Origin: an uncultured Rickettsiales bacterium
GTDB lineage: Bacteria; Pseudomonadota; Alphaproteobacteria; Rickettsiales; CANDYO01
Length of the DNA: 64,000 nt
Assembly (NCBI GenBank): GCA_964550685.1
Contig: CAZJZY010000009.1
Span: forward strand, 1,181 to 65,180
Reading direction: 5' to 3'
The position numbers were made by a program, and so were the translations under genes. Under the pieces are notes generated by a model, which did no database searches, was not told the origin of the DNA, and worked only from the letters and a program-made list of their open reading frames with translations. Positions 51,544 through 57,196 of this stretch are shown piece after piece (the first letter of the stretch is position 1; each line of letters starts with the position of its first letter).

Positions 51544-52023
51544 TTAGTTACCATCATAAACAACATAAGTCTCACATATTATATCGTAATATGCTTGTTT
51601 TTGAGGATGAAAGTATATAAAAAATTGCAAAAAAATGCTTAAGAATATTGCATAAATGCCCCACGACATATTAGCAATCACTGGTAATATTGGAAGTATA
51701 TATAAAATATACCTAAACAAAGAACGCTTAAGAGATATTCTGGCTCCATTCATATCTATAATTTTTATTTTCTTTTTTCTCATACCTAAAGTAGCCTGTT
51801 TACCACCAGATAAGAGTAATATATCATATAATGCATGGATAGAACTACTGGCAATAGATAAAACAGTTACCATTAAAGAATCAGCATTTTGTAGATACTG
51901 ACTAATAATATAACTGGCTAAACTTATAGGAGCAAGATATATCGTATCCCATAGTCCAGCACAAAATCTAGACCATAACCCCGCGTATATAAAATTATTA
52001 AAAGAAAGCTTATTTATTTTCAT
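51544..52023 (-). CDS. RDD-family membrane protein (159 aa)
   Basis: YAGLWSRFCAGLWDTIYL, KQATLGMRKKKIKIIDMNG and QKQAYYDIICETYVV follow the RDD landmarks. About 3-4 TM segments. Its start overlaps the upstream giant ORF by 14 nt. Confidence 0.75.
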   Translation of the reverse strand: MKINKLSFNNFIYAGLWSRFCAGLWDTIYLAPISLASYIISQYLQNADSLMVTVLSIASSSIHALYDILLLSGGKQATLGMRKKKIKIIDMNGARISLKRSLFRYILYILPILPVIANMSWGIYAIFLSIFLQFFIYFHPQKQAYYDIICETYVVYDGN

Positions 52024-55000: not shown

Positions 55001-57196
55001 TGTAAGATCATTCTCGCAATCTAGTAATAAAGTCCCAGAAAGTTTAATAGACATTACTTTCTGTAAGTGAATTATTCTAGCTTTAATACCAAGATTAGCT
55101 CCAGTAATCAATTTAGGTAAATATACTTGGTCAGCTATTATAAGCTTAGCGCTACTTTGTGAATTAGTTTCTTTAATTATAAGTTTTTCTGCATATACTG
55201 ATAGAATGTTGACATTAAAATCAGACAATAACGTAACCTGACTTACTGGTTCTATTTTACCATTAATCCAATGACCTTTTATCCATAAATCGCCATCAGA
55301 CCAAATATCTAATCTTTCAGGATAGGACGGATATGGCCTTGCATCCCATGTCCATAGAAACATATTTTGCACTATTTCACTCTTGCTTTGCCAATATTCT
55401 AAAGTGGCACGAATAGCGCGCATTTGAATAGCAAAATTAACACTTTCACTTGAGTACTTAGGGGCACCTCCGTCTTTAGCCTCAGGATTCCAGAAAACAT
55501 TAGGTTGATTTGTAGCCATACTGATTGATGGGAAACCAAATTCTGTGAACCATATGGGTTTCATTTTTGGTTCCCATAAACTTTGTATACCACTTCTTGT
55601 ATGGTTATTGCTCCACCAATGTTCTATTTGTTTTAAGCCCCATTCAGGAGCAAGGGCTTTGTTGCGGCCGTTTCCATCATAATAAAAATCCCATAATTCT
55701 CCAGATTCCCAGCCTAGTTTGATATCCTCAAAATATATATTTCCTTTTGTCTTATTTGTAAGGGGAAAATAAGCATCTATGCCAACTACATCTATATAAT
55801 CAGACGCCCATAGAGGATCAAGGTGATAGAATCCTTCTTCGTGATGATGGTATTCTGACCAGTCCGCCGCATAGGTAACAATAACTTCTTTACCAAGTAT
55901 AGATTTGACTTGTTTTGCTAATTCTATTAGCTCCACTACCACTGGGTACCGTTTTACGTCAGGATATTGGAACCTTACATCTATTACTGAAGTTAGTTCT
56001 TTGAATTCAGAACCAATAACAAAGGCGTCGATCTTTCCCTTTAATAAATTAGCGTAATGTATAATAAATTTATTATACCCAGTATCACTAACAAAAAATT
56101 CATGGATTTTACTAACATTATTACAAAAAATATGTCCACGCCACGGCTTTTTAGGTGAGTCCATGAGGACCATGGGGTAAAGCATTATCTTGTAACCATT
56201 ATCATGAAGACTATCAATATAGCGCTCTAAACTTTCATCGTTGATTGTTCCTCCATAATTAGGTCTACCTTTTTTATCAACAGATATTAAATGTGCCTTT
56301 GCTCTATCATATTGAGCTACATGCCAATTATCTAGTATTTTTTTGTCTCTGTGTTCCACAGCAGGTAAGATATCTATGTTTTCCATGTCTAGTTGTGATA
56401 TATCATATGGTCGTTGGCAAGCACTTCTTTTGTGAGCAAAATCACACACTACTTTCTGTTTATTTACACCAAACCATGATACCACAGGCGCTACCCATTT
56501 AACGTTAGGGCAGCTTTTTTTCAAAGATTTTATATTATAAAGAGTATCTGCGATATGTTCTGGATTATTTGCATTCATTGCTTTGCCAGTATCTGCAAAA
56601 ATTCTTTTCTCTTCTTCTAAAGGGGTTAGAATAGTTTTAGTTACGCCGTTCTTTGAGCCTAAAGGTCCACCTTCAACTATATAGGTTATTTCTTTAACCA
56701 TCTTATGTTCATAAAAATTATGAATCTTAGTATCGTAAACATACTCTCCAGAACCTGGAATAATATTCACCCCCTGAAGCATTTTTTGTACTGACAACAT
56801 GTCATCTGAGGGTAAGATGCTAATTTCCGCTCGCTTTGTTACTGCAGGCAAAGAAGTTGTAATAGCTTCTGAGCTTTGAATGGTAAAGTATTCCACTTCC
56901 AAAGCAGGTTGTTTTGTCAATGCTACGTTTATTAAGTTAAGTGTTGTAATATGTAAAGTAGAAAAGTGATTTACTATTTCAATATTACATTGACTTAAGG
57001 ATATTATATCAACGGTTTTTAAATTTAATCCAGATCCTTCAATAAAGAATATATCAAGTAATATTGTTGTAGCAGAATCGGCATTAACTATATTAATCAC
57101 GACTTCTGTATCTGTAATATTATTTAAATTTAGAGGAATAGTAGCAACCTGATTTAAAATATAATCACTAACTTCGAGGTCTATGGTAGTGCTCAT
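52010..57196 (-). CDS. 1728-aa chimeric exoprotein-like protein: GTA-type TIM-barrel (glycosidase-like) domain, CdiA/FhaB-like filament, and a unique C-terminal domain
   Basis: aa ~145-650 carry GSGEYVY, YGGT, KKPWRGHI, GYNKFIIHYANL, AFVIGSEF, VGIDAYFPL, KPIWFTEFGFPS, WTWDARPYP and GHWINGK. aa ~660-1410 are beta-helix-like repeats ending in KQDTSSQSGKAFSASIGVS...AYSEI...RSGLFG...LEGAYLDS...TATLKD...AGFGV. The last ~310 aa are unrelated to either part. Confidence 0.85.
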   Translation of the reverse strand: MSTTIDLEVSDYILNQVATIPLNLNNITDTEVVINIVNADSATTILLDIFFIEGSGLNLKTVDIISLSQCNIEIVNHFSTLHITTLNLINVALTKQPALEVEYFTIQSSEAITTSLPAVTKRAEISILPSDDMLSVQKMLQGVNIIPGSGEYVYDTKIHNFYEHKMVKEITYIVEGGPLGSKNGVTKTILTPLEEEKRIFADTGKAMNANNPEHIADTLYNIKSLKKSCPNVKWVAPVVSWFGVNKQKVVCDFAHKRSACQRPYDISQLDMENIDILPAVEHRDKKILDNWHVAQYDRAKAHLISVDKKGRPNYGGTINDESLERYIDSLHDNGYKIMLYPMVLMDSPKKPWRGHIFCNNVSKIHEFFVSDTGYNKFIIHYANLLKGKIDAFVIGSEFKELTSVIDVRFQYPDVKRYPVVVELIELAKQVKSILGKEVIVTYAADWSEYHHHEEGFYHLDPLWASDYIDVVGIDAYFPLTNKTKGNIYFEDIKLGWESGELWDFYYDGNGRNKALAPEWGLKQIEHWWSNNHTRSGIQSLWEPKMKPIWFTEFGFPSISMATNQPNVFWNPEAKDGGAPKYSSESVNFAIQMRAIRATLEYWQSKSEIVQNMFLWTWDARPYPSYPERLDIWSDGDLWIKGHWINGKIEPVSQVTLLSDFNVNILSVYAEKLIIKETNSQSSAKLIIADQVYLPKLITGANLGIKARIIHLQKVMSIKLSGTLLLDCENDLTFASEKTSTTRNEDIARTKNNYYDECIEQPIIKTNQLIIKAPNLRLESTEIFSKNIIMQLKNLELVSEKATHIRNWEWIGKPNWRGKSSHEWGSKTGEQAYITVIRSENISLELEGKLYARGAFIETQTFNGYANQYTFEALALTSEEQKTNSNKRNFLSFKPPKISKAYDSDDYFHGATLIIADKGYAFSENEILFSGSYLMGEDMELEAKSITFKAAIGKHFSAFEVKEQGMRFFASSKSGELVLGVSDYYKYVKSENYFEKAFYAGAFVNKLKIKTDKLVLSGGILAGKNISINAKEIVNESPMLIGFYQQTQIDIEYGIKIGFQESIRSTIDSMKAISNNVGGSNPALTSAINFVSNGRKAIMQATNIANGNGVQGGVWAFGEASISHMSVFKKWGLSNIINADNFEVNGTSWHMEGLDLTAKNCTINVKEIIAHFTYDEEMVKSNNGDASGQIGLIGGVSSGGTINYNGAKIHDIRQHTNHITVSGAFNLNADKVEGGLTIEANELSAIVDVLKLVSKQDTSSQSGKAFSASIGVSKGKLTSGSIYGQKNGAYSEITRDGRSGLFGKNMLLVKSSELIYLEGAYLDSSNGNLKVEAASIKTATLKDKSTSWGAGFGVDSGNAAFGVGTRITGGEKDQKRDVPGAVGNGVIIIGDQEIDEAMSVFLGISRKTNLEELKGSNWYLDATFRRVNSDEFAKAWSGGPSGIAERIVGNIEGSIGDVLESIDSLLKAGGEILKIDQVDDLQKTKNNEDIISPDGIPEKEKQKEQDKNLQKSKLPDHLMELYNEVEERTEAMELSDADKNYILNRMYNNLKKISSDEDQDFKFLTDIFAFRDKPNIWYLENLSPNEDETIRNARFDKEWKEHKMNAKKEIEIEENLPEYKAKMEQERLNSEEMIKSWKEKNKPKGFIKTLLTHPVSACIFDKVVGDEVEAVSEMIITDAVLATRDPRIIVPTYGAIIAYKAATAVHERYKCISDIYKYYVVDEQNNENK

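Follow-up and report, generated by a model that had tools for sequence, protein, structure and literature searches.

What is the function of a protein that joins part of the baseplate megatron of gene transfer agents (GTAs) to a region related to the toxin CdiA? This question is raised by a giant gene in a 64,000-nucleotide (nt) stretch of DNA, here called the window, from an uncultured Rickettsiales bacterium (GenBank assembly GCA_964550685.1, contig CAZJZY010000009.1, positions 1,181 to 65,180 of the forward strand). We found that the encoded protein consists, in order, of an N-terminal domain (N-domain), a megatron peripheral TIM barrel, an FHA-2-type beta region, a pre-toxin junction, and an exchanged C-terminus. 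The answer we favor, with a probability of roughly 0.65, is that the gene encodes a polymorphic toxin that lacks a two-partner secretion (TPS) domain, belongs to a rare family found chiefly on plasmids whose hosts are AT-rich and Rickettsiales-like, and acts by the mechanism proposed below. Close relatives display a conserved scaffold with unrelated C-termini, as polymorphic toxins do.

The reading frame is open across 5,187 nt at 33% GC. An initial annotation, made from the sequence alone, had described this open reading frame (ORF) as a three-part chimera on the strength of a series of short motifs; the three-part ORF is genuine, and every motif was found at the residues assigned to it. In the head, these are GSGEYVY (amino acids [aa] 148-154), YGGT (aa 314-317), PWRGHI (aa 351-356), KPIWFTEFG (aa 546-554), WDARPYP (aa 617-623), and GHWINGK (aa 641-647); in the distal beta region, SKQDTSSQSGKAFSASIGVS starts at approximately aa 1253 and GAVGNGVIIIGD...LGISRKTN lies at aa 1377-1409. 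The gene and its parts, all on the minus strand, are as follows, with the supporting evidence after each.

52010..57196 (-): giant gene, 1,728 codons plus stop; intact open frame
56852..57196 (-): family-specific all-beta N-domain (aa 1-115); hidden Markov model (HMM), AlphaFold2 (AF2) model
55247..56851 (-): megatron peripheral-domain homolog, a TIM barrel resembling glycoside hydrolase family 113 (GH113) (aa 116-650); Pfam, NCBIfam, Protein Data Bank (PDB), BLASTP, Foldseek
53162..55234 (-): FHA-2-like all-beta region with a low-confidence helical insert (aa 655-1345); AF2 model, family profile
54110..54481 (-): segment equivalent to the Fil_haemagg_2 match of the relative P0004 (aa 906-1029); mapped via family HMM
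53399..53851 (-): segment equivalent to the Fil_haemagg_2 matches of eight remote relatives (aa 1116-1266); family HMM
52856..53161 (-): pre-toxin-like junction (aa 1346-1447), reading ...VPGAVGNGVIIIGD...LGISRKT (nt 52976-52993)...WSGGPSGIAER; conserved in relatives
52013..52855 (-): variable C-terminal domain (aa 1448-1728), a lysine/glutamate (K/E)-rich orphan, presumed toxin; identity collapse

Seven relatives, each from independent samples, are collinear with the giant protein. Five of them (P0002, P0003, P0004, P0012, and P0032) came from a first homolog search, and P0123 and P0133 were added by a profile search with the beta region, giving a fusion set of eight that includes the query. 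The family is tiny, with eight proteins of TIM plus FHA-2 type among approximately 15 billion sequences. As proposed, the protein joins a TIM barrel of megatron type with a region related to CdiA/FhaB, which was borne out directly for the barrel (GTA_TIM) and transitively for FHA-2. The initial annotation knew of no described fusion of this kind, and we found none in the searched literature.

Scaffold of the giant protein

The resemblance of aa ~145-650 to a GTA-type TIM barrel, first seen from motifs, is far beyond chance: Pfam GTA_TIM matches aa 373-626 with an E value of 4.2e-59, and the GH113 match is weaker. The NCBIfam equivalog profile GTA_megatron (NF048004) aligned aa 269-652 with profile positions 284-760 of 1299 and gave 387.2 bits, short of the curated cutoff of 800 for a full-length megatron. 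In a PDB sequence search, the megatrons 8gtc and 6tba were the sole solved relatives (E~1e-51), for the TIM part only. BLASTP against P0053, a canonical Rickettsiales megatron, aligned query residues 116-648 with P0053 residues 197-678 at 44% identity and gave no other alignment. Approximately 1,750 database matches were obtained; nearly all of the best 120 are megatrons of 1,000-1,300 residues with PF13550/PF23666 C-termini, and these cover just ~30-38% of the query. The query has no match at E<=1 to either the central tail-attachment domain Phage-tail_3 (PF13550) or the fiber-binding domain PF23666, whereas the canonical homologs have both. Megatrons comprise an iris/penetration domain (residues 1-46), an adhesin-like domain (47-229), a peripheral domain (230-744), a central tail-attachment domain (745-984), and a fiber-binding domain (985-1304) (PMC7296036). 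Given the partial coverage in the NCBIfam, PDB, and BLASTP alignments, we therefore conclude that only the peripheral domain has been retained; the label of a GTA baseplate head was too broad, all tail-anchoring parts of the megatron being gone.

We aligned the TIM domains of the eight fusion proteins with those of 3 stand-alone paralogs and 114 canonical megatrons. Two glutamates, E397 (..IGSE..) and E552 (..WFTEFG..), and 15 positions that are invariant or nearly so in megatrons are kept in all eight fusion proteins. E397 and E552 appear to occupy the positions of the clan GH-A catalytic pair and are putative catalytic residues; we infer that the head may be a hydrolase. An AF2 model of aa 1-1000 reached moderate confidence (predicted local distance difference test [pLDDT] 66), and Foldseek with this model placed GH113 beta-mannanases as the best PDB neighbors (E~1e-6, TM score ~0.5 on the target), followed by other clan GH-A enzymes. 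Purifying selection maintains the peripheral TIM barrel of megatrons, even where endosymbiont genomes have been reduced (PMC9254644).

Ahead of the barrel, aa 1-115 stand in place of the first ~196 residues of the megatron. An N-domain HMM built on aa 1-144 matches only the eight fusion proteins, with 0 of 114 canonical megatrons and no TIM-less relatives among its matches. With hhalign, the N-domain profile reached a probability of at most 0.6% against megatron and TIM-less N-termini and 0.1% against 107 canonical megatron N-termini. The AF2 model shows beta strands in the N-domain, with pLDDT of 70-91 across most of it. For aa 1-144 there is no Pfam match and no PDB sequence match, and no known class of trafficking domain (TPS, PAAR/VgrG, LXG, MafB-N, and others) was recognized there by these means.

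The initial annotation had reported neither a Sec signal nor a TPS domain nor a TpsB gene, and our searches agree. The giant protein has no hydrophobic N-terminal stretch of Sec type, and a hydrophobicity scan found no transmembrane or signal-peptide-like stretch anywhere in it. The TPS domain (Haemagg_act, PF05860) has no Pfam match in the query or in ten large relatives. No TpsB/CdiB (Omp85-type) gene was found among the Pfam-scanned ORFs of the window, or in the recorded Pfam annotations of called genes within 10 kb at the loci L001, L002, L003, and L006. In polymorphic toxins, N-terminal domains reportedly specify trafficking, which makes the N-domain a natural trafficking candidate; we regard aa 1-115 as the best candidate for a trafficking or assembly determinant. 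For the export of TPS-less toxins without CdiB, this 115-residue domain offers a concrete candidate.

The region that follows the barrel had been described as a CdiA/FhaB-like filament, and a profile search of aa 660-1415 had been proposed as a check. When aa 1-149, 660-1415, and 1416-1728 were scanned separately with Pfam and NCBIfam, no significant family emerged, the sole match being HetR_C at 17 bits (below cutoff). A word-indexed homolog search with aa 655-1728 recovered the three closest proteins and no others. The check thus yielded no direct Fil_haemagg match; the link came through the family profile. From six sequences we built a profile of aa 655-1455; a search with it among 1.84 billion representative proteins recovered just 49 representatives, marking the family as rare. 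Fil_haemagg_2 was detected in 8 of the 10 representatives scanned with Pfam (18-74 bits), with the top score of 73.7 bits in TIM-less homologs of the beta region, which are 1,200-2,300 residues long. P0133 carries both GTA_TIM (208.8 bits) and Fil_haemagg_2 (51.1 bits) within one chain. Fil_haemagg_2 also matches P0004, at 39.8 bits (cutoff, 22). When the Pfam segments are placed on the query by means of the family HMM, those of the remote relatives fall consistently onto aa ~1116-1266 and that of P0004 onto aa 906-1029. The segment at aa 1116-1266 ends in LKLVSKQD, where the relatives read (L)ES(L/V)QD. PF13332 is the FHA-2 repeat of CdiA (PMC5371414).

An AF2 model of aa 655-1455 (mean pLDDT 74.9, predicted TM score 0.73) is nearly all beta, formed by successive hairpins with strands of 17-23 residues. 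A structure search of BFVD gave a single significant neighbor, a giant-virus "putative hemagglutinin" (E=2.3e-7), and no tail fiber or spike. Foldseek against the PDB returned nothing significant, the top entries being LptD barrels (E~0.01, TM score 0.08), and a PDB sequence search with the beta-region profile gave no match. A likeness to LptD has also been remarked for FHA-2, and the FHA-2 region of CdiA is implicated in crossing the target outer membrane (PMC9086364). Profiles for FHA-1 (PF05594), TPS, and Pretoxin-VENN (PF04829) match neither the query nor the scanned relatives. In view of the FHA-2 (PF13332) link, the lack of an FHA-1 match, and the long hairpins, we call the region FHA-2-like and not a filament. 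On sequence and model, aa 655-1345 are best called a putative FHA-2 translocation-type module rather than an FHA-1 filament; of the earlier description, the relation to CdiA/FhaB stands, transitively, and the filament or stalk does not. The model also contains a helical insert of low confidence at aa ~1059-1111 (window ~53864-54022), where the motif GFQESI..S.IDS...NPA..AINFVSN... is kept even in distant TIM-less relatives.

Exchange of C-termini and the adjoining genes

The pre-toxin junction has the consensus ..(P/R)GA(V/I)GxG(V/I)II(I/V)G...LGISR(K/D)T...LDAT...WSGGxxG.. and is kept in P0002, P0003, ORF2 of L005, P0147, and P0150; distant members carry the degenerate form xIGxG...[GAS][ILV][SN]R[DSN]x. 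In 50-residue windows up to aa 1450, the query is 36-80% identical to P0002 and 24-80% identical to P0003 (52-74% and 48-54%, respectively, in the last 200 of these residues); past aa ~1450, these values drop to 10-28% and 0-22%. A collapse of identity after LGISRKTN had been suggested as a test of cassette behavior. The collapse occurs, but ~45 residues past that motif, at ..WSGGxxG.. (aa ~1448). The post-junction regions of P0001, P0002, P0003, L005 ORF2, P0147, and P0150, all of which carry GISR(D/K/E)T, have no pairwise BLAST match with one another. Conversely, some C-termini are common to differing scaffolds (P0139/P0165, 55% identity; P0134/P0138, 42%; P0150/P0165, 30%). Recognizable tips in relatives include RNAse_A_bac (the CdiA-CT RNase A) at 43.1 bits in P0134, Lipase_3 at 25.9 bits in P0122, and an LHH/HNH nuclease at 18.9 bits, below cutoff, in L005, as the continuation of P0004.

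In L005, an in-frame TGA (3965-3967) splits the giant gene of P0004, and the next ORF (3998-5344), in the same frame, carries on through the pre-toxin junction and ends in the LHH/HNH-like nuclease. Recoding of TGA as tryptophan was ruled out: the TGA aligns with glycine in the relatives, and the contig has 53% GC. From the sequence, the TGA looks like a nonsense mutation or a sequencing error.

The final ~310 aa of the giant protein, which the initial annotation had described as a K/E-rich orphan with a hydrophobic tail, are indeed orphan and K/E-rich; the tail is not transmembrane, because no 19-residue window exceeds 1.6 on the Kyte-Doolittle scale. The word-indexed search proved insensitive for the C-terminal domain: with that domain alone it came back empty, missing even the query. 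A tblastn search of the window with the junction found no orphan C-terminal or immunity cassettes. A likeness of the P0002 and P0133 C-termini to TNT/ART-type toxins, seen by eye, was dropped for want of Pfam or BLAST support.

Two genes flank the giant gene on the same strand.

51544..52023 (-): RDD-family membrane protein, 159 aa, candidate immunity protein; Pfam RDD E=2.5e-19
57295..58737 (-): stand-alone TIM-barrel paralog, 480 aa, 98 nt upstream of the giant gene; Pfam GTA_TIM E=1.1e-37

Both had been overlooked in the initial annotation, whose three-part description of the giant gene itself was sound. The ATG of the RDD gene lies inside the end of the giant ORF, so that the two share 14 nt, and hydrophobic windows lie at aa ~109-138 of its product. 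The stand-alone paralog is 38% identical to aa 193-651 of the giant protein, covers only positions 210-768 of the NCBIfam megatron profile, and has no second domain; it keeps both candidate catalytic glutamates, with several invariant positions altered.

A module of small TIM gene, giant gene, and small ORF recurs on three plasmid-like contigs, namely, the window, L001, and L006. L001 has a 485-aa TIM protein (67% identical to the window paralog), P0002, and an overlapping 92-aa ORF; L006 has a 514-aa TIM protein, P0133, and then 136- and 93-aa ORFs. In all three loci a small ORF overlaps or abuts the stop codon of the giant gene, and the downstream ORFs of L001 (92 aa) and L006 (136 aa) are unrelated to RDD. 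ParA/ParB and DnaA_N-type replication genes are present on both of these contigs. P0012 and P0032, which are more divergent, have no TIM paralog and lie on contigs with housekeeping genes (haem, biotin, uvrA) and no plasmid genes.

Two minor features were noted near the RDD gene. An inverted repeat, AGGGTGAT-N10-ATCACCCT, at ~51480-51505 (-), ~40-65 nt past the RDD stop, is possibly a terminator-like hairpin; it has no T-run and was not called by the terminator scan. A sigma-70-like site (TTGCCA-18-TATAAT, 11/12) at 52631-52660 (-) lies inside the coding sequence of the C-terminal domain, ~600 nt upstream of the RDD gene. Its reading as an internal promoter for the downstream gene is weak, because the region has fewer promoter-like matches than shuffled sequence; the promoter and terminator scans both gave fewer matches than in shuffled sequence.

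Proposed function and rival explanations

In the mechanism that we propose, the TIM barrel would replace the receptor-binding domain of CdiA and would bind, and possibly cut, a surface glycan of a neighboring bacterium (lipopolysaccharide, capsule, or similar). The FHA-2-like region would then engage the target outer membrane and pass the C-terminal domain across it, as has been proposed for CdiA; the C-terminal domain would be the toxin, and the RDD membrane protein would shield the producer. The upstream stand-alone TIM paralog would be a conserved partner. Export would use neither Sec/TpsB nor a recognizable signal, with trafficking directed by the N-domain or with release by lysis, as for colicins. 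The placement of an excised TIM barrel approximately where the receptor-binding domain of CdiA sits gives a testable hypothesis, that the barrel binds or cleaves a bacterial surface glycan.

A wider claim is possible, although we hold it to be doubtful: that the locus represents a hitherto unrecognized class of plasmid-borne antibacterial weapons, in which a GTA-derived glycanase and its stand-alone paralog would form the recognition or envelope-breaching head of an FHA-2-type translocator, with TpsB-independent export via the N-domain or lysis. If this claim is true, a part of a gene transfer particle has been exapted for killing, and the locus is the first functional hint that the megatron TIM barrel has bacterial surface glycans as its target.

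Several points weigh against the toxin reading. No hemagglutinin-repeat profile in Pfam or NCBIfam matches the query directly at a significant level, so its resemblance to FHA-2 is shown only transitively. Cassette behavior is founded on six sequences. The function of the megatron TIM domain has been called unknown (bioRxiv 10.64898/2026.07.19.739414), and glycoside hydrolase activity has never been demonstrated for any megatron TIM domain. The C-terminal domain of the query has no recognizable toxin fold, with no homolog, family, or PDB match, and we know of no RDD proteins that act as an immunity family; the pairing of toxin and immunity protein is therefore an argument from gene position alone. 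The giant protein shows no recognizable export route. Beta-region locus scans of GTDB genomes, JGI metagenomes, and IMG/VR found no relative. Finally, a strictly intracellular host, should this be one, may meet few bacterial targets.

Comparison with known systems places the giant protein near several of them. With CdiA/TpsA (type Vb secretion, contact-dependent growth inhibition), it shares a beta region transitively related to FHA-2 (PF13332), a pre-toxin junction, an exchangeable C-terminus, and a small downstream gene, and its relatives include a carrier of the CdiA-CT RNase A domain. Unlike CdiA/TpsA, it has no Sec signal, TPS, FHA-1, or receptor-binding/YP domains, no VENN motif, and no CdiB/TpsB gene among the scanned ORFs; its junction reads GISR(D/K)T...WSGG, and its GH-like TIM barrel lies directly upstream of the FHA-2-like region, approximately in the place of the CdiA receptor-binding domain. 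With GTA megatrons (RcGTA g15, PDB 6TBA; roseophage R4C, 8GTC), it shares the peripheral TIM barrel, at 44% identity to Rickettsiales megatrons and with the invariant residues kept, but it lacks the iris/penetration, adhesin-like, central, and fiber-binding domains, and its gene lies outside any GTA or phage gene cluster.

Rickettsiales are known to have hemagglutinin-like toxins without TPS or CdiB (Verhoeve et al. 2022, Gillespie et al. 2024; PMC9111745, PMC11077975). These CRCT/CRCA-bearing toxins resemble the giant protein: they are large, signal-less proteins with hemagglutinin repeats and swappable warheads (HNH, CdiA-CT-like, LysM-associated), encoded in genomes without cdiB, and they match it in kind of organism and mobile-element context. 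The TIM-less beta-region homologs (P0129, P0134, P0142 with LysM, and others) look like members of this class. The C-terminal domain of the giant protein, in contrast, is not a CRCT, and the two papers (PMC9111745, PMC11077975) make no mention of GTA, megatron, TIM head, N-domain, or paired TIM gene. We place the giant protein among the TPS-less hemagglutinin-like toxins of Rickettsiales, to which its family brings a head module of a new kind and, as a helper, a conserved gene. What is new is the TIM head derived from the megatron, together with the dedicated N-domain and the stand-alone TIM partner; we found none of the three in the searched literature.

Colicins and S-type pyocins offer a functional analogy only, being plasmid-encoded and signal-less, with receptor-binding, translocation, and cytotoxic parts in that order and a translationally coupled protective gene downstream. 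They have no sequence kinship with the giant protein, which is far larger and has an FHA-2-type translocation module, and no lysis gene was identified. MuF-type polymorphic toxins of temperate phages are said to use a domain of a phage particle as their N-terminal module, which is a precedent; MuF, however, is a head-morphogenesis domain in prophages, whereas here a baseplate peripheral domain is found on plasmids without particle genes. On this view, a domain has passed from a gene transfer particle into a conflict system, which symbiont-like bacteria carry on plasmids that are conjugative or partitioned.

The same facts can be read in other ways. The giant protein could serve an intracellular symbiont as a surface adhesin or as an effector aimed at the host, with the TIM barrel acting on a eukaryotic or environmental glycan and the C-termini manipulating the host. 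Among the plasmid genes are one for a 1,328-aa ankyrin-repeat protein and others for cargo typical of symbionts, the C-terminal domain of the query is K/E-rich and coiled-coil-like with no toxin signature, and lipase-type tips could equally hit host membranes. We nevertheless judge a host-directed role to be rather unlikely: relatives have a CdiA-CT RNase A-type tip and an HNH/LHH-like tip, translational coupling links a small ORF with the variable end at several loci, which is the pattern of antibacterial toxin and immunity genes, and FHA-2 is tied to the crossing of the Gram-negative outer membrane. Export by the neighboring type IV secretion system (T4SS), as the initial annotation had suggested, would make the protein a contact-dependent toxin akin to the Xanthomonas X-Tfe effectors. 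A complete F-type tra cluster does share the replicon, 4-22 kb away, no alternative export signal is visible, and the Rickettsia literature proposes a type I secretion system or a T4SS for signal-less toxins (PMC9111745). The cluster, however, is a conjugative DNA-transfer apparatus, and no T4SS gene lies within 10 kb of P0012, P0032, or P0133. Secretion signals for T4SS are usually C-terminal, whereas the C-termini of this family are mutually unrelated; we find the suggestion unsupported and quite improbable.

A divergent GTA or phage baseplate or tail-fiber protein, whose variable tip would bind a receptor and whose small downstream gene would encode a fiber chaperone, seems to us very improbable. 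The TIM domain is known only from GTA-type baseplates, NCBI annotates P0123 as a [quoted passage not shown] and a variable tip with a small downstream gene, as is typical of tail fibers, also fits. Against this stand the lack of PF13550 and PF23666 matches, an NCBIfam score of 387 against a cutoff of 800, an N-terminus unrelated to that of the megatron, and the absence of phage or GTA structural genes in the window, L001, and L006; in addition, IMG/VR yielded no relatives, the BFVD neighbor is a hemagglutinin and not a fiber, and the tips of relatives are an RNase and a lipase. That the gene is an assembly chimera or a decaying, functionless pseudogene is scarcely credible. One relative (L005) has an in-frame stop, and hemagglutinin-like toxins of Rickettsia are often pseudogenized (PMC11077975), but the frame here is open over 5,187 nt of 33% GC DNA, the architecture is repeated in seven other contigs from independent samples, and the fusion TIM domains keep the megatron-invariant residues.

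Plasmid context

By its gene content, the window looks like most of a conjugative plasmid of ~67.5 kb, and the carrier is an AT-rich, probably intracellular bacterium. The window has 33% GC, and no tRNA or Rfam features were found in it. It encodes ParA, a DnaA_N protein, a resolvase, UmuDC, AbiE, a zeta-toxin-domain protein, an ankyrin protein, and an F-type tra set. ParA and the DnaA_N-domain replication-type protein lie at 24088-26652 (+). The tra cluster, at 29764-48319 (+), comprises TraE, K, B, V, C, possibly W, U, TrbC, N, F, H, and G, an SLT-domain lytic transglycosylase, and TraD. In the plasmid database, the closest matches of the window TraD, from Rickettsia felis, Megaira, and Legionella, share only ~33% identity with it, and the plasmid therefore belongs to a distant conjugative lineage. 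No GTA or phage structural genes were found among the scanned ORFs of the window, which are plasmid-maintenance, F-type tra, and cargo genes, nor in L001 or L006. The cargo is typical of intracellular symbionts and mobile elements.

9293..13279 (-): 1,328-aa ankyrin-repeat protein
18244..19917 (-): 557-aa zeta-toxin-domain protein
20873..22488 (-): AbiEi/AbiEii pair
48835..50178 (+): Lipase_3 protein
50203..51267 (-): YhcG-type PDDEXK nuclease

Plasmid-database searches found no DNA nearly identical to the window and no beta-region homolog, and a second genome scan recovered just the contig of P0123 itself (L007, JBPBQH010000199.1), at 35% GC. An exact-sequence lookup of the proteins encoded in the window gave neither names nor accessions. 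All but one of the family loci have 30-36% GC. The metagenome-assembled genome of P0123 is labeled Janthinobacterium lividum; a Janthinobacterium would be expected to be far more GC-rich than 35%, and we set the label aside as a probable mis-binning.

Just upstream of the two TIM genes lies a GT2 glycosyltransferase, 59440-60870 (-), with partial matches to the processive synthases CelA, PgaC, and NodC. Its link to the toxin module is doubtful, because this neighbor is not conserved in L001 or L006. On the strand of the module, a 912-aa protein, 61093-63831 (-), has a trypsin-like serine protease domain at aa ~170-340.

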